NCBI GenBank assembly: GCA_001793865.1
Contig: MGIS01000024.1
Coordinates: 21,525 to 85,524 of the forward strand
DNA length: 64,000 nt
Source: Candidatus Wolfebacteria bacterium RIFCSPLOWO2_01_FULL_47_17b
GTDB lineage: Bacteria > Patescibacteriota > Minisyncoccia > UBA6257 > JAGOQP01
Direction: 5' to 3'
Of this stretch, positions 5,232 to 45,049 are shown in pieces (within the stretch, counting starts at the first letter, position 1; the number at the start of each line of letters is the position of its first letter). Under the pieces are notes generated by a model. The model was not told the DNA's origin. It did not search any database and saw nothing but the letters and a program-made list of their open reading frames with translations. A program made the position numbers and the translations under genes.

Positions 5232-5658
5232 CGAAGCCAAGACAATTTTAGAGGAGATACTTTCCCGAATGGGCTTTTCGGATTTTTCGGTGCAACAAAG
5301 CGAGGACGGAAAGCGATGCGCGGTGTTTGTAAACGATGCTCCGTTTCTTTCTCGGCAGGTGGCTGGGTTTATGCTTGATCTGGATACGGTGCTACGGCTT
5401 ATACTCAAGAAAAAGAATCTGCCATTCGTATTTGTGGACGTGAATAACTACCGCAAGGAGCGTGAGGAGATTATTATAAAGCTTGCGAAGGCCGCTGCTC
5501 GAAAGGCGCTGGCCGAAAAAACCAATGTGCCACTTCCGCCCATGAATGCGTATGAACGCATGATTGTGCATACGGAATTATCGCTGCATCCGGAACTTAA
5601 GACCGAAAGCTTCGGCGAAGGGCCGAACCGACACGTTGTCATTCGTCCATTCCAATAA
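5224..5658 (+). CDS. jag: Jag/KhpB-like RNA-binding protein (KH/R3H)
   Basis: C-terminal R3H-like 'GEGPNRHVVIRP', synteny after yidC. Confidence 0.7.
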   Translation: MHNEAKTILEEILSRMGFSDFSVQQSEDGKRCAVFVNDAPFLSRQVAGFMLDLDTVLRLILKKKNLPFVFVDVNNYRKEREEIIIKLAKAAARKALAEKTNVPLPPMNAYERMIVHTELSLHPELKTESFGEGPNRHVVIRPFQ

Positions 5659-7690
5659 GATGGGGACACTGTAGCTTGTATAGTATTCCCGCTTCATCTT
5701 CATACACCCTCTCTGTTTGTGACAGGAAATTTTTTTGTATAAATGGCAGGTATTCTTGCTTAAATGGTTCATCCCAATACAGATATGTCGCTCCATTGGA
5801 GCAGAGGACGGTGGGATCGCCTGTTTGCAGAAATGAGCGTATGTTCTGGCGGCGCGCTGATCCGGTGTCCGCGCGGCCTTGTGTCCAGAGCCACCCCTCG
5901 AATCCTAAATATATAGGACGTCCTGTAAGCATGGGGATGAAATTGTTTGCTCCCGATGCGGATACGATAACGGCCGTGCTCGGTGTGTTGTTCCGTATAT
6001 ACTCAGCCGCTCCAAACTGCGTTTGTGAATAGTAGCCAAAATGCGATTTGTTTATGCGAGGACTTGTCCCAAGACTAATTCGTGCGAATACGTCCGCGGT
6101 TCCGGACGCGAGCGCTCCGAGTATGAAAATTATCGCAAGTGAAATAGGCGTGATTTTATACGGTGTACGATATACGATATTCGGCATACGGCCAATAAAT
6201 TTTTCTATAAGAAAAACAAAAACAAGCGTCGCGGCGAACCACCAGTAGAACAAAAGTTTGTTGTTATCGAATTCCCATGGCTGGAGCTTTACGAGATTTC
6301 CAACGGCAAAAATAATACTTCCGGCAATCCACGTTGCGAAAAGTGCGCTATGTTTTTTTATTTTTTTTATAAAAAAGAATGAAAGCAGCCATGCCCCAAA
6401 CAATACGCCGAAGTTTTTAAACCAAAACCACAGCGCATTCGCGTCGGTGCCCGAGGTATTGGGGTCGCACGCAAACCAGTTTGTGTTGTGTGCGCATGTC
6501 ATCCAGCCGAACCATAACGTGAGAGGTGAGACAGATGAAAAAATGGAATTTGAGAGGAGAAAATAAAGTTGCGGAGCGGCGATGAGGATGCCTATAAAGA
6601 TGGGGAGGAGTGCTTGTATACCGTATGCCGTATATTGTATATCGCGTACGCGGAACAAAAACACCACTAGCGCGAAAATTCCCATTGCAACGACCGTATG
6701 CAAGTGCGCTAAAGGAATGAATCCGACAAGCATGAACCAAAGCCATACCTTGTCTGTCTTCCAATATGCAAAAACTCCTGCAAGGAACAGGAACGCGAGC
6801 GCGGCGGCCGGCATAAACGATCGCTGGTGAGAAAAGAATGAAATAGCGGGCGTTATCCAGACAATATTCGCATCGTATTCCGCGCCGGACGGCTTTCCTC
6901 CTGTGCGGATATCCATGTGCGTGTATTCGAGTTGAGTGGTGAGTAGTGAGTAGTGAGTGGTGGGTTGTGAAAAATGCACGATGAATAGACCCAGGCCACC
7001 GCCAAACAAAACAATGGCGACAAATGATATTTGTAGAACAGGTTTCTTGACGGTGAGCTTTACGAGGTTCCACAATCCCGCTACGATGCCTGCGCCGTAT
7101 ATAAAGAGGGGCAGATGCCAAGCCAAGGCAAATGAACTCCCAAGCTTTAAAATCAACGCGCTGAGGAAGTTGATAAAAAATGTGTAGGTGAGCGGCGTGC
7201 CGCCGGCGATCGGGTGATTGAGCGCGAATGGATCCGATTCGGCCAACACTCGTATCATGTCCATGTGGTACGCGCCGTCTCCCCAGCCCTTGAGTATGCC
7301 GTAGGGAAATCCGTCCACCCAAATCATAGATTGGTACGCGAGAAGCAGGACAACGGCGGCTATTAATAGGATAGAAATACTTGTCGCTATCATTGCGAGC
7401 GACCAGCGGGAGCGCGGCAATCTCAAATAGTCAAGTGGATTGCTTCGCGTTGCTCGCAATGACAATAAAAACACTATCAGTGAAATTCCCAGAGTCGCCC
7501 ATGCCGCGAGCGTCAAATTTTTTGTGACCAGCGCACATACAAGCACAACAAACCCCTGTAAAGTTGTTCCAAGTACGAGCGAGAAAATCAAGCGCGAGAA
7601 AATACCGAATCGTTTTTCTTTATCCAAAAATGAAAGCGCAACCGCGCCTGATACTACTGAGAAAATACAAAACAACACCCCGTATATCAT
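5639..7690 (-). CDS. large polytopic membrane protein, possibly GT-C-fold glycosyltransferase (PMT/ArnT-like)
   Basis: 683 aa with >12 predicted TM helices; family assignment uncertain. Confidence 0.35.
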   Translation of the reverse strand: MIYGVLFCIFSVVSGAVALSFLDKEKRFGIFSRLIFSLVLGTTLQGFVVLVCALVTKNLTLAAWATLGISLIVFLLSLRATRSNPLDYLRLPRSRWSLAMIATSISILLIAAVVLLLAYQSMIWVDGFPYGILKGWGDGAYHMDMIRVLAESDPFALNHPIAGGTPLTYTFFINFLSALILKLGSSFALAWHLPLFIYGAGIVAGLWNLVKLTVKKPVLQISFVAIVLFGGGLGLFIVHFSQPTTHYSLLTTQLEYTHMDIRTGGKPSGAEYDANIVWITPAISFFSHQRSFMPAAALAFLFLAGVFAYWKTDKVWLWFMLVGFIPLAHLHTVVAMGIFALVVFLFRVRDIQYTAYGIQALLPIFIGILIAAPQLYFLLSNSIFSSVSPLTLWFGWMTCAHNTNWFACDPNTSGTDANALWFWFKNFGVLFGAWLLSFFFIKKIKKHSALFATWIAGSIIFAVGNLVKLQPWEFDNNKLLFYWWFAATLVFVFLIEKFIGRMPNIVYRTPYKITPISLAIIFILGALASGTADVFARISLGTSPRINKSHFGYYSQTQFGAAEYIRNNTPSTAVIVSASGANNFIPMLTGRPIYLGFEGWLWTQGRADTGSARRQNIRSFLQTGDPTVLCSNGATYLYWDEPFKQEYLPFIQKNFLSQTERVYEDEAGILYKLQCPHLIGMDE

Positions 7691-9942
7691 AGTTCTTTCC
7701 AGGTTTTACCTATTGATGCGGATACCGCAAGCGGCACCGAGAGTTTATACGCGGATTCCATTGTTTTTTTGATGTCCTGCACGATATCACTTTTGTCTCC
7801 GTTTTTGAGCATCGCATCCGGTATTTCGAATATGAGTTCGTCATGAATGGTGAGTATCATACGCGCTTTCGTGTGCACTTTCACCATCGCTAACTTCAGG
7901 ATGTCCGCGGCAAGTCCTTGGGTGGGCATATTGATGGCGGCGCGTTGGGCTTCGGACGCCATAAATTGATTTGACGCGTACAAGCCGGGCAGATGCCGAA
8001 TTCGTCCGCTCTCGTTTTGCACGTAGCCCTTTTTTCGCGCGCCGGTAAGTATTTTTTCCTGCCATTTTTTGATTGTTGCGAACTCCTCAAAATATTTTTG
8101 CATAAATTTCTTTGCCTCGTCGCCCGGAATGCCCGCCGATTGCGCGAACGCGCGATATCCCATGCCATACACCATGCCGAAGTTGAGCGTTTTTGCCATA
8201 CGGCGCATGGATTTGTCTACTTTTTCGTCGGGCACGCCGAATACGAATGCCGCCGTGCGGGTATGGATATCTTTTCCTTCGACGAATGCGTCCATCATCT
8301 GCTGGTCTTGCGTGAGGTGCGCGAGCACGCGAAGCTCGATTTGTGAGTAGTCACACGAAAGAAGCGAGTGGCCTTTGGCGGCCACGAACGCGCCGCGGAT
8401 TTCACCTGACCATTTTGATTCCTGCGGGATATTCTGCAGGTTTGGATTCGTGCAAGCGATGCGGCCCGTTGCCGCGCCTATTTGCAGGAACGTCGGATGT
8501 ATACGCCCGTCCTTTTGGACAAGGTCCTGCAAGGGATGCAGGTATGTTGTTCTGAGTTTGAATAATTCGCGGTATGCGAGCAGATCTTCGAGTGCTTTTG
8601 GCGGATCATTTATTTTTGCCAAAGCATCTGCAGATGTGGACTTGAGTTTGAGGCTGAATTTCGAGTTGAGCGCTTCAAGTACTTGCTTGGGCGAATTGAA
8701 ATTTATGTCGCTTATGGATTTTTTCAGCTTCTGTTCTTTCGTTTCAATCTCCTTTATGAGCTTGGTTTCAGTTTTTTTGAGGCGTGCTTTGTCTACCCGT
8801 ATTCCTGCTTTTTGCATATCTTCTAGGACCGGAATCAGCGGCCGTTCGATATTTTGCCATATGTCCCACAAGCCGCGCTTTTTCAGCTCTTTTTCGATTT
8901 GTGATTGCGGCATGCGCTTGTTCGGGTCCATTTCAAGAAGCTGGAGCATAATTTTTTCTTCCGGATTTAATTCGGAGTCGTGGGATTGTTTCCCCCGATT
9001 TTCCATCGGGGTCGCAATGACCGCGTGTGAACCCTCCAATCTTTTTATGAGCGATGTAAAGTTCTGTTCTTCAAAGAACGCGAGTGCTTTTTTGGGTGAA
9101 AATGAACACACAAGATCGGAGAGCTTGATGTCCACCGGTACGTTTTGGTCGATCGTCGCAAGCTCGCGCGAAAGGAATGCGATGTCTTTGTGAGATGATA
9201 TTTTTTCGTATGCCTTTTCGCCCCTTCCCTTGCTTAAAAAATCATCCAGTGTTCCGTACTTTTGTAGAATGGTTGCCGCGGTTTTGGGGCCCACGCCGGC
9301 AACGCCCGGGATATTGTCCGATGTATCTCCAACAAGCGCCTTGTAGTCTATGAGTTGGTCCGGCCTTAGGCCATAGCGTTCGTGTACGCGCGCTTCGTTG
9401 TATAGAAGCGTTTCGGAAACACCCTTTTTGAACGTTTCTACTTCCACCCCGTTAGAAGCAGATCGCCCCTCGGCGGTCGTAGCCATGCCTGCGGCAGGGC
9501 GGCTTCTAACGGGGTCCACGGCATCATCGTGCACCAATTGCAGCGAGTCAAGGTCTCCGGTGAGTATGCGCACCGGTTCCTGTTCTGAAAATTTTTTTGC
9601 GAGCGCACCAATGAGGTCATCTGCCTCGTAGCCCGCCTTTTCGATCCACGGTATCGAAAAGGCGTCGAATAAGTCATGGGCTTTTATTATCTGTGCGATG
9701 AGTTCATCGTCTGCCTTGGGCCGATGGATTTTATAGTCCGCAAATTTTTCCTTGCGGAATGTGGGTTCGGGCCGATCGAAGAGTGCCGCGCAATGCGCGG
9801 GTTTGGTTTGCTGGATGATTTTCAGCACAATGCCCGCTACACCGTATAAGGCGCCGGTTGGCTCGCCCTTTTTGTTCGTAAGCGGCGGGAGCGCATGGTA
9901 GCAGCGGTGTATTAGTGAATTGGCATCGATTAATAACAACAT
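7687..9942 (-). CDS. polA: DNA polymerase I (5'-3' exonuclease plus polymerase domains)
   Basis: Motif A 'DYSQIELRVLAHL', motif B 'RRMAKTLNFGMVYG', motif C 'HDELIFE', FEN-like N-terminus. Confidence 0.9.
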   Translation of the reverse strand: MLLLIDANSLIHRCYHALPPLTNKKGEPTGALYGVAGIVLKIIQQTKPAHCAALFDRPEPTFRKEKFADYKIHRPKADDELIAQIIKAHDLFDAFSIPWIEKAGYEADDLIGALAKKFSEQEPVRILTGDLDSLQLVHDDAVDPVRSRPAAGMATTAEGRSASNGVEVETFKKGVSETLLYNEARVHERYGLRPDQLIDYKALVGDTSDNIPGVAGVGPKTAATILQKYGTLDDFLSKGRGEKAYEKISSHKDIAFLSRELATIDQNVPVDIKLSDLVCSFSPKKALAFFEEQNFTSLIKRLEGSHAVIATPMENRGKQSHDSELNPEEKIMLQLLEMDPNKRMPQSQIEKELKKRGLWDIWQNIERPLIPVLEDMQKAGIRVDKARLKKTETKLIKEIETKEQKLKKSISDINFNSPKQVLEALNSKFSLKLKSTSADALAKINDPPKALEDLLAYRELFKLRTTYLHPLQDLVQKDGRIHPTFLQIGAATGRIACTNPNLQNIPQESKWSGEIRGAFVAAKGHSLLSCDYSQIELRVLAHLTQDQQMMDAFVEGKDIHTRTAAFVFGVPDEKVDKSMRRMAKTLNFGMVYGMGYRAFAQSAGIPGDEAKKFMQKYFEEFATIKKWQEKILTGARKKGYVQNESGRIRHLPGLYASNQFMASEAQRAAINMPTQGLAADILKLAMVKVHTKARMILTIHDELIFEIPDAMLKNGDKSDIVQDIKKTMESAYKLSVPLAVSASIGKTWKEL
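9447..9514. mobile_element. MITE-like palindromic element inserted in-frame in polA (TIR CCCCGTTAGAAGC / GCTTCTAACGGGG)
   Basis: 13-nt perfect terminal inverted repeats, 42-nt spacer, flanking TCCA direct repeat; element+TSD=72 nt=24 codons. Confidence 0.6.
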
Positions 9943-9998
9943 GATACGTTTATTTTATCACATATTTGGTCTGTCTTTCTTATTTGTTTGCTATACAC

Positions 9999-10100
9999 AA
10001 TTTCGAATTCTGAATTTCTAATTTCGATTCAATTTTGAATAACTGAAGTTTCGAAATTAATGCATTAGAAATTGATTCGAAATTCGGAATTGGAAATTAT
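9999..10100. repeat. AT-rich GAATTTCGAAT-type palindromic intergenic repeat, copy A (diverged)
   Basis: Shares 'gaatttc/gaaattc' motif architecture with copies at 25.9, 26.6/27.0, 41.6 and 45.1 kb. Confidence 0.6.
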
Positions 10101-10194
10101 AAATTATATGAATTATCCACACATCTTCGATTTGCGCGTAAATAATGTGTTATACTGTTTGAAAGGCCCTAAAAGCAATCACTAATTATTTATT

Positions 10195-11334
10195 ATGGAT
10201 CAAAACACGTCCTTCGATCCGATACAATCATCGGGTCAGCAAGATGATCGAAGTAAAGTTCCTCCTCCGCCCCCGTCATATGATCAACAGGTTGGGGTAC
10301 GAAGCATGGCTTCCGATATGCAGTCCATCCAGCAGTCCGGAGGCGAGTCGCCTCAGTCCCAGATACTCTCGGCACAGGATGTTTTCAAGTCGCCGCAGCA
10401 GGATCAGTCTCAATTTATTCCCCCAGCCACTCCGATGAGCGCGGTTCCTCCTCCACCGATGCCGGATATTCCCGGCATGATGCCGCAGGCACCCGATCAA
10501 CAGCAGGTAGTTATGGAACCTCCGGTGTCGCACGGATCGCCCCTCAAGACCATTCTTACGATATTCGGTATTGTTATCGTTGCGGCGGGCGTGGGATATG
10601 GAGTGTATTATCTTGTAAACTCGTTGAACTCTGGGCCAGCCGTTCCCGCGGTTCCTGCGTTTTCACCCAATCCGGCGCTTTCCGAGGAGCCGACGCCGGC
10701 CGCATCGACACCGTCTCCGCTAAGCCATTCATCGCTTATTCCCAACCCGGCAAAATCAGAGAGTATTCCGCTGACGATGATTGCGTTGGGAGATTTCAAA
10801 ACGGCTTTGTCGGCAGTATCAGCCCGGGAAAGCATGCTCGTGGGCACCGTAAAAGATCTTTCTTTTGTGACTGAAGCGGGGGTGCCGGTAAGTTCTGAAC
10901 AGTTTTTGACCGCGTTCTTTCCGTCAGCGGCCGCGAATATTTCATTTCTCTTTGAACAGGACTTTACCGCATGGTTGTATGGCGATCGTGTAGGCGGAAA
11001 TAAATTCGGTGTAGTGTTCGGGGTAAAGCAAGGAATCTCTGCTGAGCAATTAACCGCGTCACTCTCTCTTCTTGAGGGAAACACATCGGACATATCCAAT
11101 ATGTTTGTTTCATCGGTTTCGGCGGCAGGAACATCCGGTTTTGAAGGGGCTCCGATTGATGGCATTCCGGTTCGGTATCTGGTGCTTTCATCAAAGAATC
11201 AGCAGGTGTTTGAGTACGCGTCGGTGCAGATCGGCGGTAAGATGCACGTGATCATTACGACTTCCTACTATCAGATGCAGCACATACTTAATCTGCTCAA
11301 CGCCCAGCCGGTTGCCACAACTCCGACCGTGTAA
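10195..11334 (+). CDS. hypothetical Pro/Ser-rich membrane-anchored protein
   Basis: Long disordered P/Q/S-rich N-region, one TM helix, no recognised domain. Confidence 0.4.
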   Translation: MDQNTSFDPIQSSGQQDDRSKVPPPPPSYDQQVGVRSMASDMQSIQQSGGESPQSQILSAQDVFKSPQQDQSQFIPPATPMSAVPPPPMPDIPGMMPQAPDQQQVVMEPPVSHGSPLKTILTIFGIVIVAAGVGYGVYYLVNSLNSGPAVPAVPAFSPNPALSEEPTPAASTPSPLSHSSLIPNPAKSESIPLTMIALGDFKTALSAVSARESMLVGTVKDLSFVTEAGVPVSSEQFLTAFFPSAAANISFLFEQDFTAWLYGDRVGGNKFGVVFGVKQGISAEQLTASLSLLEGNTSDISNMFVSSVSAAGTSGFEGAPIDGIPVRYLVLSSKNQQVFEYASVQIGGKMHVIITTSYYQMQHILNLLNAQPVATTPTV

Positions 11335-14320: not shown

Positions 14321-14342
14321 TTCTGTAACCTTTCAAATCCCC

Positions 14343-15106
14343 ACGAGGCTCAGCCTCGTAGAGAAAGTATGAGAAAGTTAGCTTTTGTAAATGGTGGTAT
14401 ATATCACATCTATAACCGCGGAGTTGAAAAACTCCCCGTTTTTCATGATAGTCATGATTGTTTCAGGTTTTTGTATGGCCTTTATGAATTTAATGACAAA
14501 AATCCTGCCGAAAATATTTACTTTAAAGAACCTTCTTTAAAGTCCTACGAGGCTGAGCCTCGTAGGGAGCTTATCCTTAAGGATCGCGAACAAGTTGTCC
14601 ATATATACGCGTATTGCCTTATAGATAATCACTTCCATCTTATGGCCAGGCAAATAGAAGAAGGGGGAATTGTAAAATTTATGCATAAATTAGGGACGGG
14701 GTATACTGGGTTTTCCAATAAAAAATATGAAAGGTCAGGGCATCTTTTTCAAGGAAGATTTAAAGCGGTTTCCATAGAGAAGGAATCTCAATTATTGTAT
14801 CTTCCATATTATATCCATGCGAATACACTTGATATGTATATGCCCGGATGGAGAGAGGATGGTGTTGCTAACCTCAATAAGGCAATGCAAATTCTTGAAA
14901 ACTATGAGTATAGCAGTTATTCGGAGTATGCATGCGAACAAGGGAATTATCGGAATCCTATTTTAGAAAAAGATTTTTTATCAGGAGTTTTAGGATCCCC
15001 AGAACAATATAAAAAAGATATGATGAAGTGGCTTAAGGAAAAAAATAGATTCGAAAAATTAGGCGGAGTAACGATAGAGTCATAGTTCTACGAGGCTGAG
15101 CCTCGT
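14343..15106. mobile_element. IS200-like unit / RAYT with REP-like palindromes ACGAGGCT(C/G)AGCCTCGT at 14343-14359, 14545-14565 (internal) and 15090-15106
   Basis: Three copies of the same perfect 17-nt palindrome bracketing and within the HuH gene. Confidence 0.55.
14369..15085 (+). CDS. IS200/IS605-like (RAYT-like) HuH Y1 transposase family protein
   Basis: HuH motif 'DNHFHLM', family resemblance to COG1943; flanked by REP-like palindromes. Confidence 0.6.
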   Translation: MRKLAFVNGGIYHIYNRGVEKLPVFHDSHDCFRFLYGLYEFNDKNPAENIYFKEPSLKSYEAEPRRELILKDREQVVHIYAYCLIDNHFHLMARQIEEGGIVKFMHKLGTGYTGFSNKKYERSGHLFQGRFKAVSIEKESQLLYLPYYIHANTLDMYMPGWREDGVANLNKAMQILENYEYSSYSEYACEQGNYRNPILEKDFLSGVLGSPEQYKKDMMKWLKEKNRFEKLGGVTIES

Positions 15107-15129: not shown

Positions 15130-16929
15130 TTGCTTTACACTGGCGTTATGTTTTCGGACTTGAACGACAAACAAAGAGAGGCGGTGTTTGCGGGGGATGG
15201 GCCGCTTTTGATAGTGGCGGGCGCGGGATCTGGCAAAACCAAAACACTTATTTCTCGGATCTTGTATTTTATTGCCGAGAAAAAGATCGAGCCGGCGAGG
15301 ATACTTGCTATTACGTTTACAAACAAGGCGGCTGATGAAATGAAATCCCGCGTGCTCGCCGCGCTCAAAAAAAGCGGTATCGGTATCCATTCCGAGCCGC
15401 GATTGAGCACCTTCCATTCATTCGGCGCGGCGTTGCTGCGTGATATGTGCGAGTACGCGGGTCGCACGAAGACTTTTTCCATATACGACGATGATGACTC
15501 GATCAAGCTTCTGCGCGACATAGTGAAACATAAAAATCTTGAAAAAGGAAAAGGAGCCGGCTACTTTGTGCGTGAAATATCCCGCATAAAAAGTGAGTTA
15601 GTCGGCAAAGCTGAATTCAGCGGGGAGGATGTTGTGCGGGAGGTATATGAGGAATACGAAGCTATGCTTAAAAAAAACAATGCGTTTGATTTTGATGATC
15701 TGATTGAAAAAGTGGTGCGCATATTTCAGGTCCACCGTGACGTGCTGGAGGAATATCAGAAGCGCTATACCCATGTGCTTGTGGACGAATACCAGGACGT
15801 GAATACCTCGCAGTATTGGATGCTGAAATTACTCGCGCAGAAACACGCCAACGTGACGGTCGTCGGAGACGATGCGCAATCCATATACCGGTTCCGATTC
15901 TCTGATTTTAGGAATTTTTTGAACTTCGAACAAAGTTGGCCGAATGCGAAGGTAATTTTTTTGGAGCAGAACTACCGTTCTTCTAAAAATATCATTGAGG
16001 CATCTTCGGATCTGATCGCAAAGAATACACAACAAAAGAAAAAGAATTTATGGACCGAGAATAGCCAAGGCGTGCCGGTGCAAGTCGTTGAGCATTCCGA
16101 TGAATTTAGCGAGGCTGATTTTATTGTCACCAAGGGGCGCGATCTTCAGAAGCTTACGAAGCATATCGGGATTCTGTTCCGTACAAACGCGCAGTCGCGC
16201 GCGCTGGAGCAGATGCTTATTGAATACGGCGTGGAGTACCGCCTATTCGGGGCGGTGAGTTTTTATGAGCGTAAGGAGATACGCGATGTGGTAGCGGCGC
16301 TGCGGTACGCGCACAATCCCGCCGATGAAGTCGCGCTTGATCGGCTGAAAAAGAACCTGTACAAAAAGCATTTTGTCTTGCTACGTGACGAGCTGCCGCA
16401 AAGAGCGCATGGAGTTTCTCCGACGAAGGTTATTTCGTATTTTATGGACGCGGTTTCGTATCCCGCGTATCTGCAGTCGGAATTTTCAAATTTTACTGAG
16501 CGGTTGGAAAACGTGCAGGAGCTTTTAAATTTTGCCGAGCAATTCGATTCTCTTGGGGCGTTTTTGGAAAAAATAGCGTTGGTGGATGCTTTTGATTCGG
16601 GGCGAAGGAAAAAGAAGTCTCGGCATGAACAGGGACCGACCATCGATTTAATGACTATACACCTCGCAAAAGGGCTTGAATTCGATGTGGTTCTGGTGGC
16701 GGGGGTCAATGAGGGAACGCTGCCGCATAGCCGGTCGTATTATTCGATGGACGAATTGGAGGAAGAACGGCGGCTGATGTATGTGGCGATGACGCGGGCC
16801 AAAGAGCAGTTGTATTTGAATTTCTATCACACGCCTTCGCGATTCCTATTTGAACTTCCGGGTAATAAGATTGTGTTCCATGGAGAAAAATCACTTGAGG
16901 ATGAAGAACGGTATATAGAATATGACTAA
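15130..16929 (+). CDS. UvrD/PcrA-family ATP-dependent DNA helicase (short)
   Basis: Walker A 'GAGSGKTKTL', 'VLVDEYQDVN' motif II, UvrD C-terminal motifs. Confidence 0.85.
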   Translation: MLYTGVMFSDLNDKQREAVFAGDGPLLIVAGAGSGKTKTLISRILYFIAEKKIEPARILAITFTNKAADEMKSRVLAALKKSGIGIHSEPRLSTFHSFGAALLRDMCEYAGRTKTFSIYDDDDSIKLLRDIVKHKNLEKGKGAGYFVREISRIKSELVGKAEFSGEDVVREVYEEYEAMLKKNNAFDFDDLIEKVVRIFQVHRDVLEEYQKRYTHVLVDEYQDVNTSQYWMLKLLAQKHANVTVVGDDAQSIYRFRFSDFRNFLNFEQSWPNAKVIFLEQNYRSSKNIIEASSDLIAKNTQQKKKNLWTENSQGVPVQVVEHSDEFSEADFIVTKGRDLQKLTKHIGILFRTNAQSRALEQMLIEYGVEYRLFGAVSFYERKEIRDVVAALRYAHNPADEVALDRLKKNLYKKHFVLLRDELPQRAHGVSPTKVISYFMDAVSYPAYLQSEFSNFTERLENVQELLNFAEQFDSLGAFLEKIALVDAFDSGRRKKKSRHEQGPTIDLMTIHLAKGLEFDVVLVAGVNEGTLPHSRSYYSMDELEEERRLMYVAMTRAKEQLYLNFYHTPSRFLFELPGNKIVFHGEKSLEDEERYIEYD

Positions 16930-17719
16930 CAAACGACTCGGTCAGCATTTTTTACAGAATGGAGCTAAGCTACAAAAGATTGCAGACGCTCTTGAGATAC
17001 AAAAAGGGGATGTGATAATCGAGATTGGCCCCGGTAGAGGCGAACTTACTGAAAAACTTCTTGCCGCGGGCGCACGTGTGATTGCTATTGAAAAGGATGT
17101 ATTGTTGTGGTCAAGGCCGGGTCTCGACCACCTCGAGATGGTGTACGGCGATGTGCGAGAAAAGCTTTCGGTTGTTGTGAAATCTTTAGAAAAGAAACCC
17201 TACTTTCTTGCAGGAAATATCCCTTACTATCTGACGGGGTATTTGTTGCGAATGATAGGAGATATTGAGCACAAGCCGGTGCGGACAGTTTTTACGATTC
17301 AAAAGGAAGTTGCTGAGCGAATATGTAAAACCGAGGAGGTTGGCATGAATATATTAGCGGCTTCCATTTTGTGGTGGGCTGACGCGGCATACATTACCAC
17401 AATTCCGCGAAAAATGTTCAATCCTCCGCCGAAGATTGATTCCGCCGTAATCTTACTGAAAACAAAGCCAGCTTTCATAAAGGGTGGAACGAGGCAGCTC
17501 CGTGACCACGCTGATTATATGAAATTCGTGAAAGTTTTATTCGCGCATCCACGCAAAACAGCGCTATCGAATCTCCTCGCATTGTATAAAAAGAAGGCCG
17601 TGTTGGTCACCTTTACTGCATTGGATATTAGTGCGAATATTCGTCCCGAAAGACTCTCATTTGAGAAAATTTTAGAATTATATAAAACATTGCCCTCACT
17701 TAAGGACGATCGTCCTTAA
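16922..17719 (+). CDS. rsmA: 16S rRNA (adenine1518/1519-N6)-dimethyltransferase
   Basis: 'LGQHFLQN' and SAM-binding 'IEIGPGRGELT' KsgA motifs. Confidence 0.85.
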   Translation: MTNKRLGQHFLQNGAKLQKIADALEIQKGDVIIEIGPGRGELTEKLLAAGARVIAIEKDVLLWSRPGLDHLEMVYGDVREKLSVVVKSLEKKPYFLAGNIPYYLTGYLLRMIGDIEHKPVRTVFTIQKEVAERICKTEEVGMNILAASILWWADAAYITTIPRKMFNPPPKIDSAVILLKTKPAFIKGGTRQLRDHADYMKFVKVLFAHPRKTALSNLLALYKKKAVLVTFTALDISANIRPERLSFEKILELYKTLPSLKDDRP

Positions 17720-17725
17720 GTGAGG
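17694..17725. repeat. perfect 32-nt palindrome CCTCACTTAAGGACGATCGTCCTTAAGTGAGG overlapping rsmA 3' end
   Basis: Exact palindrome between convergent genes; related copies at 18383-18424 and 19650-19691. Confidence 0.7.
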
Positions 17726-17727
17726 AA

Positions 17728-18300
17728 CTAAATTCCAAAGTGATATTTAAGTTTATCTTCTCCTTCAAAATGATCCACATACGCAATAAGTATGTGATCT
17801 CGAATTGCGTAAAACGACGCGATGAAATCTATTTCGTCTTCGCACGAGTACGGAATAATAGCCACGCTCCTTTGGAGGAAATAAAAACCCATTCGATAAA
17901 GATGCCTTCGTAGAGCATTCCGCGCGGTTTTGTATTTTTCAGGAACGTCGAATGAAACAATTCGCCATTTTTTGTCCCATCGTCCCGCCGTCTTCAGCTC
18001 TATGTGTTCAATATCAAATTGCAAAACTTTTTCTTTTCCGGTTTTCAGTATTTTTATCTCTATGTTGCCATCCGCGAGTTCTTTGTAATCAACCATCTCT
18101 CGTTTCTGGAGGACGCGCAGATCCCGCATGAATTTATCTTTTTCAAAACACCTTTTTCGATAATAGATTTTTGCCAGTTCCGAGAGGATACGCGCGCCGC
18201 CAGCTGGATTGGTAAGTGAGACAACGGCAATTCCCGTGCCGATTGCAAGGTATTTCAATATAAGATGCGAGCGAGAGTTTCTATATATATTTTTTGCCAT
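17728..18300 (-). CDS. hypothetical protein with PaaX-C-like 'RWDKKWRIVSFDVPE' motif, possible regulator
   Basis: Weak motif resemblance only. Confidence 0.3.
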   Translation of the reverse strand: MAKNIYRNSRSHLILKYLAIGTGIAVVSLTNPAGGARILSELAKIYYRKRCFEKDKFMRDLRVLQKREMVDYKELADGNIEIKILKTGKEKVLQFDIEHIELKTAGRWDKKWRIVSFDVPEKYKTARNALRRHLYRMGFYFLQRSVAIIPYSCEDEIDFIASFYAIRDHILIAYVDHFEGEDKLKYHFGI

Positions 18301-18382
18301 AACAGCCGAGCACTATTCGTGCTCCTATTATCACTCCCTCTGTATATAAAATCAACCCCCAGTTAGGCGATTGTCAGATGTT

Positions 18383-18424
18383 CTGCCCCCACTTAAGAAC
18401 GATCGTTCATAAGTGAGGGCAGGG
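18383..18424. repeat. imperfect palindrome with ACGATCGT core (family copy 2)
   Basis: 'CTGCCCCCACTTAAGAACGATCGTTCATAAGTGAGGGCAGGG'. Confidence 0.6.
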
Positions 18425-18461
18425 AGAGTGGCGGGAAGAGAATTTAAAAGAGTCAGGGCGG

Positions 18462-18800
18462 CTAGAAAGGAAATAGGCCGCAACGTATGACTCCGTCCGC
18501 AAGCTCATGACAGGTAAAAAATAATTCTATGACGGTTTCGTATAGAAAGTAGATAAGCAGACATCCATATGCGGCAAGCGTTCCTATTCCCGTCCATTTT
18601 AAGAAGTTATTTCCATTTTTTCTGGATTTTGATATGAGGATTATGGGCACAGAAATGAAAGCGATTAAGAATAGAAGCGACAGATTTGCCCCGACTGATC
18701 CGAGTCCGAGAATTCCTGAAAGGCGAAACAAACCCAATACAGCAGCAAAAATGGCAATGCCGGTTATAACTCCGCTGATCTTTTGATATGCGTTCTTCAT
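18462..18800 (-). CDS. small integral membrane protein, hypothetical
   Basis: 112 aa, 3-4 TM helices. Confidence 0.4.
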   Translation of the reverse strand: MKNAYQKISGVITGIAIFAAVLGLFRLSGILGLGSVGANLSLLFLIAFISVPIILISKSRKNGNNFLKWTGIGTLAAYGCLLIYFLYETVIELFFTCHELADGVIRCGLFPF

Positions 18801-18836
18801 TTTTAAATTTGGTTATAATGTAGTATCAGCCGCCAT

Positions 18837-19601
18837 TTAGCGGTAGATACAATAGGGATTTGGGGAGATGGCGCAGGGATCGTTTTTCTCTTTTGCCGTA
18901 ATACATGATTCGTTTTTGTTTGTCGTATACACATATCTTTGCGAGCCCGTGTATTCGGCGGGTTTTGGCACCGGAAAAGTGTCCAATTTTTTTTCTAGCT
19001 CCATCAGGTTATTCGCGTATACTCCGAATTTTGTAAAATACAGTACCTGAAGAGCCTCTATTTTTTGTATATCCGCTTTTGCGCGTGCGGTGCTTGCGGT
19101 TGATTTGCAATATACACCCGGAATACTTTCCCAGATTGAAGCGATAATAATCACGTAGCTGACAACGTTTATGATCGTCATAAGCACGAGGGCTTGATTT
19201 TGCGTGAAATTATATTTTTCTTTGATCTTTTTTGTGAAGAATGCGAGTTCGAAAAATACGGTGAATATAAAGAATATTGGGAAGAGAATGTATATAGATT
19301 GCTTGTCGGGTCGGGCGATAATAGAAGTCGCAAAAAATCCGAGGATGGATGTTACGAAATTCCCAAGAATGATAATGAATAGAATGTGTTTTACCGCAAG
19401 CCATTTTTTGTATATGAACTTTGAAGCGATAATGAGCGTGATTGCTTCGGATATAACCACCACAGCAAAGAGAACGAACACATTTCCGAATGCTTCTATG
19501 ATAGTTGGAGACATGCCAACGATCATATCTGCATATGCAAAGGATGTGGACAGCAGGATTCCGGCCGCAATAAGAGTTGGTAGAAGCGGGGCTTTTTTCA
19601 T
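18837..19601 (-). CDS. polytopic membrane protein with C-terminal pilin-like Cys-containing segment, hypothetical
   Basis: Multiple TMs; C-terminal 'ARAKADIQKIEALQVLYFTKFGVYA' resembles type IV pilin post-helix region. Confidence 0.35.
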   Translation of the reverse strand: MKKAPLLPTLIAAGILLSTSFAYADMIVGMSPTIIEAFGNVFVLFAVVVISEAITLIIASKFIYKKWLAVKHILFIIILGNFVTSILGFFATSIIARPDKQSIYILFPIFFIFTVFFELAFFTKKIKEKYNFTQNQALVLMTIINVVSYVIIIASIWESIPGVYCKSTASTARAKADIQKIEALQVLYFTKFGVYANNLMELEKKLDTFPVPKPAEYTGSQRYVYTTNKNESCITAKEKNDPCAISPNPYCIYR

Positions 19602-19649
19602 GTTGCTTTAAGTATAAGTCGTGTCTGCGAAAGTTCAAGCTATACGTGT

Positions 19650-19691
19650 CCCTGCCTTCACTTATGAACGATCGTCCATAAGCGAGGGCAG
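19650..19691. repeat. imperfect palindrome with ACGATCGT core (family copy 3, inverted relative to copy 2)
   Basis: 'CCCTGCCTTCACTTATGAACGATCGTCCATAAGCGAGGGCAGG'. Confidence 0.6.
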
Positions 19692-19779
19692 GTAGAGGGG
19701 GCGGTTGGTGAGGGGGATTTTATGCACATTTTTCGTTTGTATAAAGACCTCCACTAGTAGTATACTTATATTGTATGAA

Positions 19780-19909
19780 CCCCGCTAGAAGCCCTTGGCT
19801 GAAAATTTTTAACGAAATTTTCTGCGGGGCGCGAGCGGGGAGTTGTGCTATGGATAATCAAGTCACCCGAAATGAGCATGGGCTCTATAAGGACAGGCTT
19901 CTAACGGGG
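19780..19909. mobile_element. MITE-like element (TIR CCCCGCTAGAAG / CTTCTAACGGGG) immediately upstream of and overlapping start of ORF 19909
   Basis: Terminal inverted repeats with one mismatch; homologous to 58508-58634 copy; flanking TGAA direct repeat. Confidence 0.6.
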
Positions 19910-20685
19910 TGAATCGCTCGCGGACATACTTTTCCGTGTTTTTAGGCATAGTGATACTTTTTGTATCCTATTATGTTTCGCAATCTCTCTTTTTTTCGCG
20001 AAATAACGACAAGGATGCTCCTATCTCAAAAATTTTCAGTAGTGGAACGACTCCGAAGTTCGCCGAATCAATATCGGCAGGAAGTGTTTCCAATGTAAAT
20101 CTTACGCAGGCGCTCGTGAGCGATATAAGTGAGGATTTTTATACCAAAGTTGAAGGTCTCGACGCGCAAGGGCGTGAAGATCTATTCGCGCAAATTAAAG
20201 CGGGAAACGCGGAAAGTCTTAGCTTTGCGAATGTCGATCCCGATACGTTTGCGCAGCAGTTAACTCCCGAGCTTATCGGTATTCGTAACGAGATTTCGGA
20301 CGATGAAATAAAGTCAGATCCGAAGAATGATGTGGAAGCGTATAAAAAGCGTTACTTGCTTGCGGTAACCGATGTGCAGCTGCTTGTTTCTTCGCAAGAT
20401 GCAGCCGGAGTACTGCAATCCTTTATGGATCAAGGGGATGTCTCTGGACTGAACGCGATTGTGAACGCACATCGGGAGACATACGGCGCTTTACTGGACA
20501 TTCCGGTTCCCAAGAATGCGCTTGAATTCCATAAAAAGAATTTATTGTATTTTTCCAATTCTGCCGCTATCTACACTGCGCTTGGGCAATACCAATCCGA
20601 TCCTTTAAAAGGATACCTTGCGGTGCAGTATATGGGATCCATTTATCGGTTGTGGGATGAAATTTATTCAAGCGGCATTTTATGA
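19909..20685 (+). CDS. hypothetical secreted/membrane-anchored protein (GTG start inside MITE terminus)
   Basis: N-terminal TM/signal; first gene of T4SS-like cluster. Confidence 0.4.
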   Translation: MNRSRTYFSVFLGIVILFVSYYVSQSLFFSRNNDKDAPISKIFSSGTTPKFAESISAGSVSNVNLTQALVSDISEDFYTKVEGLDAQGREDLFAQIKAGNAESLSFANVDPDTFAQQLTPELIGIRNEISDDEIKSDPKNDVEAYKKRYLLAVTDVQLLVSSQDAAGVLQSFMDQGDVSGLNAIVNAHRETYGALLDIPVPKNALEFHKKNLLYFSNSAAIYTALGQYQSDPLKGYLAVQYMGSIYRLWDEIYSSGIL

Positions 20686-22679
20686 AACGGACTATTTTGA
20701 TTTTAATAATATGTACGGTTGTGGGATCGACCCTTGGTTTTCTGGTCCCGCCTCGGCGTGTGCACGCCCAAGCCGACGGTTCAGGGTGGGCGATATTCGG
20801 GGAAATGCTTGCGGAATGGGGCAAGACGATTTTGAAGTGGGTCGAGGATGAATTATGGCCGGTGCTTCGTGACCAAGCGGTGAAGCGGATAGTTGATGAT
20901 CTTACCGATCAGATAATAGATTCAATAGAAAACGGAGGAGAACCATTGTTTATACAGGATCCGCTGGGTGAATTACAGAGGGTGGGAGATATTACGTTTG
21001 ATACGTTTAATTCATATCTGGGAAGTGAAACGGGTGTAAACTTATGTGCGCCTTTTCAGGCTGAACTTTCATTATATTTTCAAACAACATTTCAACGAGA
21101 GCAGCCATTTGGGCTTCCTGTGCAATGTACATTTAGCGAATTTCAGCAGGCGTTGCAGGATAGCGCCCATTTGATTGAACGTGGTGGATGGGTGACGTTC
21201 CAGCAGGCATTTATTCCGAGTAATAATTTCTTCGGGGCATCTCTTCTTGTCGATCAAGCGTATATGAATGAGACACAGCGAAAGCTTAAAGAAGCAAGCG
21301 ACAGAATGAATAGAAATTTAGGATTTGACGATGTGAGTCTTTGTACCCAGTGGCGTAATCCTCGCTCAGGAGATCTGGCCGTTTCTGAGAACGAGGCGTA
21401 TAGCATGGCGCTTGAAATGAGTGGATACGCGATGCCGCTGACTCAAGACCAGGATCAACAAGTACAGAACATAATGGAAGGCCTTTGTACAAGACGCGAA
21501 ACGCTTACGCCCGGAAGCATTGTAGCGGAAGCTGCTACAAAAGGAGTTTTGAAAGATTTTGAATACGCGGCGAATGTGCAGAGTATCATATCCGCGCTTA
21601 TCAACACCGCGTTAAGCAAGGTGTTTGATAAAGACAAGGGAGGGCTGCTTGCGGCGCATAGTTCGGTGCGAGGGACGAGCTTTGGTTACGAGTCATATAC
21701 CGGCAAGACGTTCAAAGATCAGGTTGACGCGGCTATACGTGATTTGGAGGCGAAAAAAGAATCGTACTACGGGATCAACGCATACCTGCAGGTCCTGGAG
21801 CCGAAGATACTACATGCAAGAAGAGGCGCCCTTTCGGCAATAGCCCTATGTACGAACTGGTATGATACAAATAAAAATAATAACGAAGGGGGCGCTATCG
21901 GCTATCCACATTTCGGATATGTTATTTATGATCCGCAAGAAGGCATGCGTGTAACGGCAACTTTGGGAGATTTAGTTGAAATTCCGTTCGCGTCTTCCTC
22001 GCCTCTTTTTGCCGATTCGTGGGAAACGCTTTTTGACAGCAGTCCGGACAGCAACGGAGGGTTTTTTATGCGGGATCCTACGATGGGCGAGCCCCTCGCA
22101 CATGAAGGATACTTCACTGGGCTTGAGCGCGCGAGACGCGCCGCGCGGGACGCATTAAACGGCACCCCTGAGAATCCCGAAGGTATTTCGCGGCGTCTTG
22201 AGGGATACCTTGCCGAATTGCGGGCGATTCAAACCAATCCTGAAACCGGAATAAAGAATGCTGTTATCGCGTCATTGCAAGCGGGACCGCCGTCTTTGAC
22301 GGCAGACGAAGCGCGGGCAATATTCGAATCCGCGAGCTCCACTTTTGTTCTTGAATATATCGCGGATTCGACCGACCGCATGAACAGGATTCTTGGCATT
22401 GCGACAAGGGAATTCTCAGATTACACAAGCGAATTTTCTGTTGTGGTCAGCGATGCCGTAAGGCAAAGTTCATACGGGTCTGGGCCAGGAAACCTGAATA
22501 TAGCCAACCTTTCGCTCTCCGCGACACTCGATTCCCTTATCCAGGGATTCACAACCACTCCGTACGGGGCGTTTGTTGATTCCCGTCCGTGGACCGGGTC
22601 GCTTCATATAAAGAATCTTATCCGTAATAGTATTCCTGGAGAATATTCCCCCATGTTTTTCTGTGAAAATAGGACATGA
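20682..22679 (+). CDS. large hypothetical secreted protein
   Basis: 665 aa with N-terminal signal peptide; 4-nt overlaps with both neighbours (operon). Confidence 0.45.
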   Translation: MKRTILILIICTVVGSTLGFLVPPRRVHAQADGSGWAIFGEMLAEWGKTILKWVEDELWPVLRDQAVKRIVDDLTDQIIDSIENGGEPLFIQDPLGELQRVGDITFDTFNSYLGSETGVNLCAPFQAELSLYFQTTFQREQPFGLPVQCTFSEFQQALQDSAHLIERGGWVTFQQAFIPSNNFFGASLLVDQAYMNETQRKLKEASDRMNRNLGFDDVSLCTQWRNPRSGDLAVSENEAYSMALEMSGYAMPLTQDQDQQVQNIMEGLCTRRETLTPGSIVAEAATKGVLKDFEYAANVQSIISALINTALSKVFDKDKGGLLAAHSSVRGTSFGYESYTGKTFKDQVDAAIRDLEAKKESYYGINAYLQVLEPKILHARRGALSAIALCTNWYDTNKNNNEGGAIGYPHFGYVIYDPQEGMRVTATLGDLVEIPFASSSPLFADSWETLFDSSPDSNGGFFMRDPTMGEPLAHEGYFTGLERARRAARDALNGTPENPEGISRRLEGYLAELRAIQTNPETGIKNAVIASLQAGPPSLTADEARAIFESASSTFVLEYIADSTDRMNRILGIATREFSDYTSEFSVVVSDAVRQSSYGSGPGNLNIANLSLSATLDSLIQGFTTTPYGAFVDSRPWTGSLHIKNLIRNSIPGEYSPMFFCENRT

Positions 22680-24880: not shown

Positions 24881-24885
24881 CACAC

Positions 24886-25923
24886 ATGATTCAGATTTCT
24901 CAACAACAACTTGAACGACGATGGGATGAGGCGCCAGACGAGATTCGGGACGGCATATTTTCGGATGAAAATAATGATGAGTTGGACAGGATAGGAGTCA
25001 CATATACTTTGAATCGTCAGCAGGAAAAAGATCTGGCATATCTGTGCCTGGTTACGTTCTTGGGATTCATCACCACGAAAGATGTATACAACCAGTTGCT
25101 GGAATTTTTCGGAGGAAATGCAAAGAGTGCGTACGATGTGTATGTGCTGTTGGATGTGAAGCTGTTCGGGCCGGTAAAGGGGCAAATAGAGGCGTTTCGG
25201 AAGACGCACTGGATTCCGGATGAGCAGGCCGATGTTCAACTTTCCCAGACCAAGGTTGAACCTCCACGCATGGAACAGAGGGTGGATTTGAAGAAGAGAC
25301 CGGAGAAAGATGCGGTCAATTTAAAAACAGAAGAGATTAAAAAGGTGGAGTCGGAGCCTGGACCGGTGGTGGTGTCACAAGTTAGAAGTGAGAAGCTAGA
25401 AGTGAGAAGTGAACAAAAAGAGCAAGTCCCCGCTGCTGTTCTTCCAACCTCCAACTTCCAACCCCTAACTTCTCAACCGAAATTGTTTTCGCCACACGAT
25501 TTTCACTTGAGAGGTGAGAAGTGGGCTGTGAGTAGTGAGAAAACTCAGTCTTCACAATCCGTAACTCAAAACCCACAACCCACTACTCAAAACCTAGACG
25601 AAGGGCCCATCATTCTTCACAAAAAGGAGGAATCTATTCCGATTGCGGAAGCGAATAGGTATAAAGAATATAAAAATATATCGGCGGGAGGATTTTTGGG
25701 GTCGTTTGGAAGCATATTCAACAGGAAGCGGGAACAGCAGAATCAGGCGCCGAGGGCGAGCGTGGAGATACCGGAGGCGTATACCGAAAACCGTATACCG
25801 TATACCGAATCAGGGAAGGTAGGGGAGAAAGTTCCGGTGAAGGTGAAGAATTTCGGAGATGAGCGAAGCAATGTGCAGTACAGTGATTATAGGACATATC
25901 TAAAACAAAGAGACCAGAGTTAA
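24886..25923 (+). CDS. hypothetical protein with internal short tandem repeats
   Basis: Repeats 'agaagtgagaag' x2, 'cgtataccg' x3, plus in-frame palindromic element 25234-25261. Confidence 0.4.
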   Translation: MIQISQQQLERRWDEAPDEIRDGIFSDENNDELDRIGVTYTLNRQQEKDLAYLCLVTFLGFITTKDVYNQLLEFFGGNAKSAYDVYVLLDVKLFGPVKGQIEAFRKTHWIPDEQADVQLSQTKVEPPRMEQRVDLKKRPEKDAVNLKTEEIKKVESEPGPVVVSQVRSEKLEVRSEQKEQVPAAVLPTSNFQPLTSQPKLFSPHDFHLRGEKWAVSSEKTQSSQSVTQNPQPTTQNLDEGPIILHKKEESIPIAEANRYKEYKNISAGGFLGSFGSIFNRKREQQNQAPRASVEIPEAYTENRIPYTESGKVGEKVPVKVKNFGDERSNVQYSDYRTYLKQRDQS

Positions 25924-26030
25924 TTTTTAATTATGATTTTCGAATTTCGAATCAATTTTAAATGACTGAATTTCTAAAATCAATACATTCGAGTTTGACT
26001 CGAAATTCAAAATTAGAAATTCGGGATTAT
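25924..26030. repeat. AT-rich GAATTTCGAAT-type palindromic intergenic repeat, copy B (solo)
   Basis: ~90% identical to copies D and E. Confidence 0.7.
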
Positions 26031-26039
26031 ACCTAAAAC

Positions 26040-26558
26040 ATGCAATTTTCAGTACCACAATTCATTGATGTTGAAAGCAAGATTGTCGGGCCGCTGACCA
26101 TCAAGCAATTTGTGCTGGTGGCGGTGCCGGCATTGTTGACATTTGTGCTCTTTTTCGTACTGCACATTGCCTTCTGGATTCCGATCGCGGCAATCTTGGT
26201 TGGCGTTGGTGTATCGTTTGCTTTCATAAAAGTAGACTCCCGTCCTTTGTATATGATTGCGCTCTATGCCCTCAAATTCTTTTGGCAGCCGAAACTGTAT
26301 TTATGGAAGCCGGCGGTTATAACCGAGAAAGTTATTATTCCCGAGATACAAAAGAAACGATTCGAGCTTAAGACACTTATACCCGATTTTTCGAAGGTCA
26401 ATAAGCTATGGCAGGACATGACCACGACTAAAAACCCCATTCCGAAGCGCGAAAAAATACTTCCCAAAGCGATGCTGCAAGAAGTGCAAGAACAGTACCA
26501 GGTGTTTAGAAAATTGAGCGGCGAACGGGAGATAGCGAAGAGAGTGGACTTTAGATGA
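26040..26558 (+). CDS. PrgI/TcpE/VirB3-like small conjugation membrane protein
   Basis: Two adjacent TM helices after 'IVGPLTIKQFVLVAV' segment, precedes VirB4. Confidence 0.45.
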   Translation: MQFSVPQFIDVESKIVGPLTIKQFVLVAVPALLTFVLFFVLHIAFWIPIAAILVGVGVSFAFIKVDSRPLYMIALYALKFFWQPKLYLWKPAVITEKVIIPEIQKKRFELKTLIPDFSKVNKLWQDMTTTKNPIPKREKILPKAMLQEVQEQYQVFRKLSGEREIAKRVDFR

Positions 26559-27016: not shown

Positions 27017-27075
27017 AAGGAGTATCAAAACATAATTGCTTTATTAAACATAGTTTTTGCACTATACTACTATAC

Positions 27076-29895: not shown

Positions 29896-29906
29896 CGGCG
29901 ATGCCG

Positions 29907-29962: not shown

Positions 29963-29966
29963 CGCA

Positions 29967-45015: not shown

Positions 45016-45049
45016 TGTGCAGTGTGATATAGTTATGTATTATAGGAAT

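Follow-up and report, generated by a model that had tools for sequence, protein, structure and literature searches.

A probable mobile palindromic element in frame within a Wolfebacteria polA gene and its relatives across the Candidate Phyla Radiation

The interrupted polA gene

The 64,000-nt stretch of contig MGIS01000024.1 of a Candidatus Wolfebacteria bacterium (the window; all coordinates are window positions unless the identifier of another locus, L plus a number, is given) carries a polA gene on its minus strand at 7687-9942. The 751-aa product consists of 5′-nuclease and polymerase domains, as seen from the Pfam families PF02739, PF01367 and PF00476 in its homologues, from alignments and from a structure model. 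Within the gene lies a 68-nt element (9447-9514) that has perfect 13-nt inverted termini and a 4-nt duplication, TCCA, on either side. The left terminus, CCCCGTTAGAAGC (9447-9459), is complementary at 13/13 positions to the right terminus, GCTTCTAACGGGG (9502-9514). The left copy of the target-site duplication (9443-9446; TGGA on the polA coding strand) is identical to the right copy (9515-9518), and two related loci, L001 and L002, have a single uninterrupted site. For the GC-rich interior of 42 nt (9460-9501), two small hairpins closed by the terminal stem are predicted. The element folds with -28 kcal/mol as DNA (z = -6.4 against shuffles) and with -43.5 kcal/mol as coding-strand RNA (z = -4.5). 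Together with one copy of the repeat it adds 72 nt, or 24 codons, which contain no stop codon in the frame used, leave the polA frame intact and encode residues 143-166, DPVRSRPAAGMATTAEGRSASNGV. The length of the element, its perfect termini, the TCCA repeats and the 24 added codons had all been described in an original prediction made from these letters, and are confirmed in the sequence.

The same prediction held that the segment has no counterpart in other Pol I proteins, and the alignment of orthologues that it called for bears this out. The insert is absent from 60/60 of the closest PolA homologues (the best 60 of 7,839 matches, up to 70% identical), all of which have a gap of 23-24 residues opposite it and read QLVxD-GxVxVETFKKG. 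The interrupted protein holds the stretch PVRSRPAAGMATTAEGR, where an uninterrupted junction would read AVEVETFK. Alignment to solved structures of Pol I, those from Taq (query 2-139 and 180-299) and from M. smegmatis (query 2-140 and 170-270), likewise stops short at the insert, and invariant residues are retained on either side of it. In the DNA of the two nearest relatives, L001 and L002, the polA site is empty and uninterrupted; in L001 it reads GATGGCCGCATAGAAGTCGAAACA, and its counterpart in the window is GATGATGCCG-TGGA-[element]-TGGA-AGTAGAAACG. An orthologue with the segment but without the inverted repeats was not encountered, as none carries the segment at all. Judged from these sequence comparisons, the polA insertion arose after the lineage had parted from relatives with a 70% identical PolA.

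Twelve contigs are on record with exactly this 751-aa protein. Three of these (from two ENA samples and JGI sample 3300002502) were read and are 100% identical to the window at the DNA level, and the same protein is held at NCBI as OGM90566.1 / OGM92066.1 from Candidatus Wolfebacteria metagenome-assembled genomes (MAGs). Because the identical filled allele occurs on three contigs from three samples and in the NCBI Wolfebacteria records, an assembly artefact is excluded. More broadly, the segment could be an ancestral or lineage-specific PolA loop that is palindromic by chance, or an assembly chimera; its sole support is that no closely related empty-site allele was recovered. Such an origin is barely credible beside 13/13 termini with a 4-nt repeat (the 13-mer alone is expected 0.08 times per window), elements of the same type in unrelated genes and genomes, the lack of the segment in every one of the closest homologues, and identical contigs from three independent assemblies. 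We consider it effectively refuted.

Mapping the insert onto a structure had also been proposed. In an AlphaFold2 model of PolA (46 sequences; mean pLDDT, the per-residue confidence score, 89.7), residues 141-161 form coil with pLDDT <50, flanked by a helix (131-136), which comes after the invariant T128-G129-D130-x-D132 motif, and by a strand (166-172). The insert is thus low-confidence coil between folded elements, and is predicted to loop out of an otherwise normal 5′-nuclease domain as a disordered loop. The original prediction placed it in a linker of Pol I; the lack of a counterpart elsewhere stands, but the site, about 10 residues past the TGDLD metal-binding motif, is a loop adjoining a beta-strand inside the 5′-nuclease domain and not the inter-domain linker. 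The latter (residues 306-322) is likewise of low confidence in the model. The PolA is compact, with 727 aa once the insert is subtracted, and in this protein and its homologues from the Candidate Phyla Radiation (CPR) only 5′-nuclease and polymerase Pfam domains are listed, with no 3′-5′ exonuclease domain.

Related elements in the window and across the CPR

With at most one mismatch allowed, the window has 5 matches to the 13-mer terminus (0.08 expected), a count reached in 0/100 shuffles. Four of the five matches are both ends of the polA element and both ends of a second family member. This second copy is 130 nt long (19780-19909, plus strand), is flanked by TGAA duplications (19776-19779 and 19910-19913) and sits at the start codon of a conserved 258-aa gene. 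Its last G and the TG that follows form a GTG start codon at 19909, and the old ATG is kept at 19775-19777, preceded by TATACT-N8. The orthologue of the 258-aa gene in L002 has an empty site (...gtgtgtATGAATCGCTCGCGG / ...ATGAATCGCTCGCGG), the second orthologous empty site of the family. The genes nusA and clpP flank a third member of 129 nt (58507-58635, plus strand), whose TGAA duplications occupy 58503-58506 and 58636-58639. Here the last A of the element and the following TG make the clpP ATG at 58635; the old ATG, at 58502-58504, is preceded by TATACT-N6. The original prediction gave the same termini for elements at 19780-19909 and 58508-58634. Termini and repeat structure are indeed shared with the polA copy; the interiors of both long copies are not, and the third copy extends to 58507-58635, having a T...A outer pair and a T at terminus position 12. 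The fifth match to the 13-mer, at 55373, is due to chance and falls inside a conserved SBP_bac_5 motif. A decayed fourth copy at 55270-55384 was rejected for the same match, which is the conserved PVTSDDIVF motif of an SBP_bac_5 protein, and a relaxed scan of the window for degenerate terminus pairs gave no additional true copy.

The termini of the family, YCCCGTTAGAAG...CTTCTAACGGGR, are accompanied by a TNNA duplication. A scan of one genome per GTDB species with the pattern CCCGYTAGAAG, 46-106 nt, CTTCTARCGGG returned at least 120 stretches, and a metagenome scan for short forms at least 119. The search for termini suggested in the original prediction therefore yields three copies in the window and more than 250 elements elsewhere in genomes and metagenomes, nearly all of them Patescibacteria among the matches listed. 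The genome matches listed comprise Saccharibacteria, Nomura-, Kaiser-, Yanofsky-, Falkow-, Jorgensen-, Staskawicz-, Nealson-, Moran-, Gribaldo- and Levyibacteria and Paceibacterota; a few come from MAGs labelled Planctomycetota, Ratteibacteria or Syntrophobacter. Copies number three per 64 kb in the window and up to 5-6 per fetched locus.

Several properties of the collected elements were not imposed by the search pattern, namely the outer base pair, the duplication and the insertion contexts. The pair just beyond the searched termini is complementary in 246/257 elements, and the repeat is for this reason really 13 nt long (Y...R). A perfect 4-nt direct repeat flanks 160/257 elements against 15.5 expected, and 3/4 bases match in 32 more. 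Across the 257 elements the duplication has the consensus T (87%) N N A (87%), with R before it and Y after it. Subfamilies with C...G ends at ATGAAA have ATGAA-C as left flank and G-TGAAA as right flank, which favours 13-nt termini with a duplication of 4 nt over one of 6 nt. Cores measure between 27 and 132 nt, the minimal 27-nt forms being the two termini around a 3-5-nt loop. Such minimal forms were seen in L214 (6089-6115 and 8424-8450), a 13.6-kb metagenome contig of 52% GC that holds at least 5 family members within 5262-11144.

The copies labelled Planctomycetota (L019 1195-1270, L081 4967-5044, L116 94-171, L043 460-561) do not have the usual 4-nt duplication. They sit in a larger shared context, ..CCTGC-element-CTGGGAAGC.., and some are in frame in open reading frames (ORFs). 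They could stem from faulty binning, belong to a protein segment that is repeated, or form a separate sub-lineage.

Interiors are unrelated between subfamilies, which were grouped by eye, blastn clustering of interiors being too fragmentary for a rigorous definition. Aligned with five related copies from other genomes, the polA interior defines a subfamily reading GAAGCCGnCCT..GCTACG..GGGGCGnnCTGCTTC on the coding strand. It retains the terminal stem, a CGCCC/GGGCG stem and a hairpin that changes in sequence yet stays complementary (TGCC/GGCA, TGCCG/CGGCA, CTCTCG/CGAGAG, TGTCC/GGACA). In a second short subfamily (GTAGCC..., 15 sequences) the consensus structure is a three-way junction, and 7/28 of its pairs show compensatory double changes.

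The terminus pattern had no match in viral contigs, and blastn against plasmids and phages returned none. A gathering-threshold Rfam scan of the window gave one tRNA only, and a permissive Rfam scan of a long copy gave only chance matches at the level of microRNAs. In the literature searched on MITEs (miniature inverted-repeat transposable elements), palindromic elements and leaderless genes in the CPR, including a 2024 MITE review and a 2024 Patescibacteria perspective, the family is not described. It is apparently an undescribed, CPR-wide element family.

Evidence for mobility and the nature of the enzyme

The elements have the marks of MITEs: at 27-132 nt they offer no space for a transposase gene, and they combine terminal inverted repeats, a 4-nt target duplication of variable sequence, multiple dispersed copies and two orthologous empty sites. 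The polA segment is thus probably an in-frame insertion of a mobile palindromic element, non-autonomous and MITE-like, and a functional analogue of the Rickettsia palindromic elements (RPEs). From the defined termini, the variable duplication of fixed length, the palindromic target preference and the orthologous empty sites we infer cut-and-paste movement with 4-nt staggered cuts by an enzyme supplied in trans; that this is cut-and-paste by a DDE-type transposase acting in trans has, in our estimate, about an even chance. Such a transposase would cut on either side of TNNA in R-TNNA-Y sites, with a 4-nt stagger. The insertion into polA came after the split from the nearest sampled relatives and doubled a target of 4 nt, which is TGGA in coding-strand orientation. 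On the simplest reading the polA copy would be a tolerated passenger loop, not a functional addition, and the -43 kcal/mol hairpin in the polA mRNA a side effect. Coding-region copies would be purged by selection unless their length is a multiple of three and their frame open, two of the three frames through the termini being open.

A different enzyme has been considered, since the window encodes two Y1_Tnp proteins (IS200/RAYT-like), each beside palindromes. One gene (14369-15085, plus strand) has palindromes CTACGAGGCTGAGCCTCGTAG at 14338-14361 and 14545-14568; the other (60268-60951, minus strand) has CAAGATTTAATCTTGCAC-type hairpins at 60232-60277 and 60962-61006. The two proteins are paralogues (41% identical) and are the only transposase-like matches in a Pfam scan of 40 window ORFs. 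Further Y1 paralogues occur in other element-bearing CPR loci (L008, L111, L231, L051), and the strong structure of the elements and the minimal termini-only forms of L214 would also suit REPIN-like hairpins moved as single-stranded DNA by a domesticated HUH/Y1 (RAYT/IS200-like) transposase rather than a DDE enzyme. However, IS200/IS605 and RAYT chemistry, as known from IS608, inserts 3′ of a fixed short sequence without target duplication, and HUH chemistry does not explain a 4-nt duplication that varies between copies of one subfamily. Moreover, the palindromes at both Y1 genes are unrelated to the family termini, and Y1 genes are not linked to the elements (4/244 loci). REPIN-like movement is improbable on these grounds, and membership in REP/REPIN-RAYT was rejected on the variable 4-nt duplication and the unrelated palindromes that flank the Y1_Tnp genes.

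The termini bear some likeness to two transposon groups. piggyBac has 13-bp termini starting CCC (CCCTAGAAAGATA) and a 4-bp TTAA duplication; IS1380-family elements have ends in CC and a 4-5 bp duplication. The family termini likewise measure 13 nt, start YCCCG..., contain TAGAA and accompany a 4-nt TNNA duplication. Unlike in piggyBac, the central two bases of the duplication are free, and no transposase of either group, or of any other, was found with the termini in the window or the fetched loci. A relation to either group is only a tentative lead.

Integron attC sites share several traits with the family: they too are imperfect palindromes (57-141 nt), their conserved 7-nt boxes contain GTT and AAC, their centre varies and is at times branched, and they adjoin gene starts. 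In the family, however, the box order is 5′ GTTAGAA...TTCTAAC 3′, as against 5′ RYYYAAC...GTTRRRY 3′ in attC. Identity with attC was rejected on this reversed order, a last position that breaks the consensus, the variable 4-nt duplications and the copies inside ORFs.

Copies within genes and at start codons

Within long ORFs of the genome sample there are ten copies, nine of 66-78 nt and one of 102 nt, all of which read xPVRS...SNGx. Those in MetRS (L102, PVRSRPAGAAVATATTGRPASNG) and RsmH (L006, PVRSRPLEHESATITLGRPASNG) belong to the polA subfamily and have the same orientation as the polA copy; PDB alignments of both proteins are interrupted at the element. An M17 aminopeptidase and a pyridine-nucleotide oxidoreductase host copies outside that subfamily. 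Of 123 distinct short cores from metagenomes, 40 are in an open frame, and for 19 of these the ORF is at least 300 aa long. Two frames are used by the metagenome ORF copies, PVRS..SNG in 27 and PLE..LLTG in 13; the third frame through the termini carries TAG or TAA. Lengths that are multiples of three make up 59% of short forms in metagenomes and 53% in genomes, against 35% of long forms, and this enrichment is a signature of selection on translated insertions. The colonisation of genes in the manner of RPEs, as first suggested for polA, holds as an analogy, with in-frame short copies in MetRS, RsmH, the M17 aminopeptidase and at least 19 other long ORFs.

Conceivably the 72 nt are absent from the mature PolA, through intron or intein removal or through programmed translational bypassing between the duplicated GTGGA sites. 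The duplication does give an identical GTG GA at take-off and landing, and a very stable hairpin comes next. Like the byp elements of Magnusiomyces mitochondria and T4 gene 60, the family makes short, GC-rich, structured insertions in coding genes with matching flanking codons; in those cases, however, the ribosome skips the insertion, which does not have to keep the frame. Every intragenic copy found here is open and a multiple of three, which neither removal nor bypassing requires, and the take-off site is not followed by a stop codon. At 24 residues the segment is far too small for an intein and has no intein terminal motifs (Cys/Ser/Thr...HN), and Rfam gave no match to a ribozyme or intron family. 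An intein or self-splicing intron was accordingly rejected, and we hold absence of the segment from the mature protein to be highly improbable.

Start codons account for a large part of the remaining copies. In the genome sample, 76/136 copies adjoin an ORF of at least 60 codons such that the last base of the element (A/G) and the TG of the duplication make up the start codon, which amounts to 62% of the copies outside ORFs (76/123). Long forms lie mostly exactly on start codons, rebuilding ATG or GTG. Only 17 start codons of the window fit RTGNA, against 636 intergenic RTNNA sites, and the share of 62% is therefore roughly 20-fold over naive expectation. The original ATG is retained upstream of the element in 48/75 start-codon copies. 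A TANNNT box peaks 6-7 nt ahead of this first ATG and Shine-Dalgarno-like motifs are rare (7/75), so that the sites look like leaderless gene starts. The two long copies of the window, with TATACT ahead of the old ATG, conform to this pattern. At other intergenic sites the flanks are mostly of the GTNNAC type and a -10 box is missing from the corresponding distance, and on this ground targeting of transcription starts in general was rejected. Termination-reinitiation from the first ATG was rejected as a general mechanism, as that frame stops early in 41/51 cases.

Among the start-codon copies (L006-L125), Shine-Dalgarno-like motifs (GGAG, AGGA, AAGG) show a loose peak upstream of the rebuilt start, at a distance of about 30-34 nt; they fall immediately 5′ to the extended stem's 3′ arm and are too far away for a normal ribosome-binding site. 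Copies in L016, L023, L047 and L048, from different CPR classes, have no upstream copy of the ATG and share the left flank AC(T/C)TGT, preceded in two of the four by TATAATATAGA. This flank suggests either a longer conserved unit including the promoter or convergent loss of the first ATG.

These observations allow the family to be read quite differently, as mainly a functional structured leader or RNA module at gene starts that would govern how leaderless genes are translated or their mRNA processed, with the polA copy as an off-target by-product. The concentration on so few fitting start codons speaks for it, as do the TANNNT peak, which is absent for intergenic copies, the orientation bias given below and structures conserved with covariation. 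However, no Rfam family matches, interiors differ wholly between subfamilies, the frame from the first ATG mostly stops early, and there is no consistent -10 box or Shine-Dalgarno motif at a fixed distance from the rebuilt second start codon. Intragenic copies, moreover, are open and multiples of three, with no sign of removal at the RNA level. Going by sequence patterns, a leader function of this kind may exist but seems to us unlikely to be what the family mainly is; it overlaps with the mobile-element reading, because an element of this kind can still be mobile. Tentatively, long forms may be adapted to or targeted at position +2 of leaderless genes: landing between A and TG, their terminal A/G would rebuild the start codon behind a 5′ hairpin, giving a portable structured leader that alters translation or processing CPR-wide. 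In-frame insertions, the polA copy included, might then be what this machinery yields on the side in the short form, and might supply essential enzymes with new surface loops.

To return to the polA segment as a mobile insertion, several points weigh against it. A search of the window and of 1.77 Mb of fetched loci revealed no autonomous element and no transposase bounded by these termini. Terminus pairs 180-6000 nt apart and solo termini (window and 244 loci) yielded only combinations of separate small elements, and the evidence for the enzyme and for the transposition step consequently comes only from termini and duplications. An empty polA allele was not found in a close strain: the protein cluster at 90% identity contains only the 751-aa form and two fragments, and a degenerate-codon pattern for the uninterrupted junction, DDAVEVETFKKG, had no match in the metagenome collection. 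The insertion is thus fixed in the sampled population and, as no closely related empty allele was found, the polA locus gives no sign of recent mobility. Conservation of the termini is partly set by search design, the collection scans having required exact termini. Open frames and multiple-of-three lengths point to a probable translation of the intragenic copies. By shared 8-mers, 61 start-codon copies face one way relative to the gene and 12 the other, and this orientation bias, with the conserved junction and its compensatory changes, suggests constraints beyond those on a simple selfish MITE.

Known repeat families and neighbouring features

In Rickettsia, the small palindromic RPEs lie in frame in unrelated housekeeping genes, encode a fold-compatible peptide and have no known transposase (PMC10969869). 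The CPR family resembles them as small palindromes in reduced genomes of host-dependent bacteria, with recurrent in-frame insertion in housekeeping genes and no known transposase. It differs in its hosts, which are Patescibacteria and not Rickettsia, and the likeness is put forward as one of analogy, not of membership. Intragenic copies are also shorter (about 55-80 nt, as against about 100-150 nt for RPEs) and have sharp 13-nt termini with a clear 4-nt duplication. To our knowledge, siting at start codons, as in the long forms, has not been reported for RPEs.

Correia/NEMIS elements of Neisseria, ERIC/IRU of enterobacteria and BOX/RUP of pneumococcus are often co-transcribed and form RNA hairpins, with some in-frame fusions (PMC10969869). 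Like the present family, they are non-autonomous, bounded by inverted repeats and multicopy. Correia elements have a TA duplication and 26-nt inverted repeats. We know of no such MITE family that spans a whole superphylum with invariant termini, or that restores the start codons of leaderless genes. The evidence supports an RPE-like MITE family that is new to the CPR. Three of its features are not familiar to us from described MITEs, namely the CPR-wide termini, the start-codon rebuilding at leaderless genes and the conserved junction structures.

The CPR, or Patescibacteria, account for much of bacterial diversity; their genomes are tiny and tightly packed, and they are regarded as poor in mobile elements. 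Invariant CPR-wide termini and sharp footprints would imply a transposition system that is active now or was recently and is exchanged among lineages. The family would be a second independent case, after Rickettsia, of a palindromic element building peptide loops into essential enzymes of reduced genomes, and a general route to new protein segments becomes testable thereby. The start-codon copies raise the question of how a leaderless gene is translated when its transcription start and its rebuilt start codon are separated by a 70-130-nt hairpin. In practice, such insertions inflate and disrupt the PolA, MetRS and RsmH marker alignments used for CPR phylogeny, and may mislead gene callers on starts.

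Other features of the window lie near the second family member. The 258-aa gene (19909) is separated by about 2.2 kb from an rRNA adenine dimethylase gene (16922-17719); in the relatives L001 and L002 the two genes are only 76-82 nt apart. The extra DNA (17728-19700) encodes a PaaX_M (Cas2-like domain) protein and has a 254-aa ORF without Pfam match, and it carries perfect palindromes at 17694-17725 and 18383-18422. Downstream of the 258-aa gene, at 20682-33240, is a type IV secretion-like cluster (PrgI, a TraG/VirB4-type ATPase and a type IV secretion system pilin), which also holds large proteins without Pfam match.

A second, unrelated repeat family consists of AT-rich intergenic palindromes of about 110 nt (AATTTTTAATTTTGAnTTTCGAATTTCGAATC...), with copies at 9987-10096, 41609-41717, 45047-45164 and 53972-54063. 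One of these copies lies directly upstream of polA, between it and a divergent gene at 10195. Finally, a diversity-generating retroelement occupies 46997-50210. Its variable repeat (48353-48450) lies at the 3′ end of the gene at 46997-48487, whose product has an FGE-sulfatase fold and an N-terminal methylation motif, and the template repeat (48935-49032) is 87% identical to the variable repeat, the differences lying at template adenines. The RVT_1 reverse transcriptase gene follows at 49071-50210, with a convergent Fic gene at 50186-51253.

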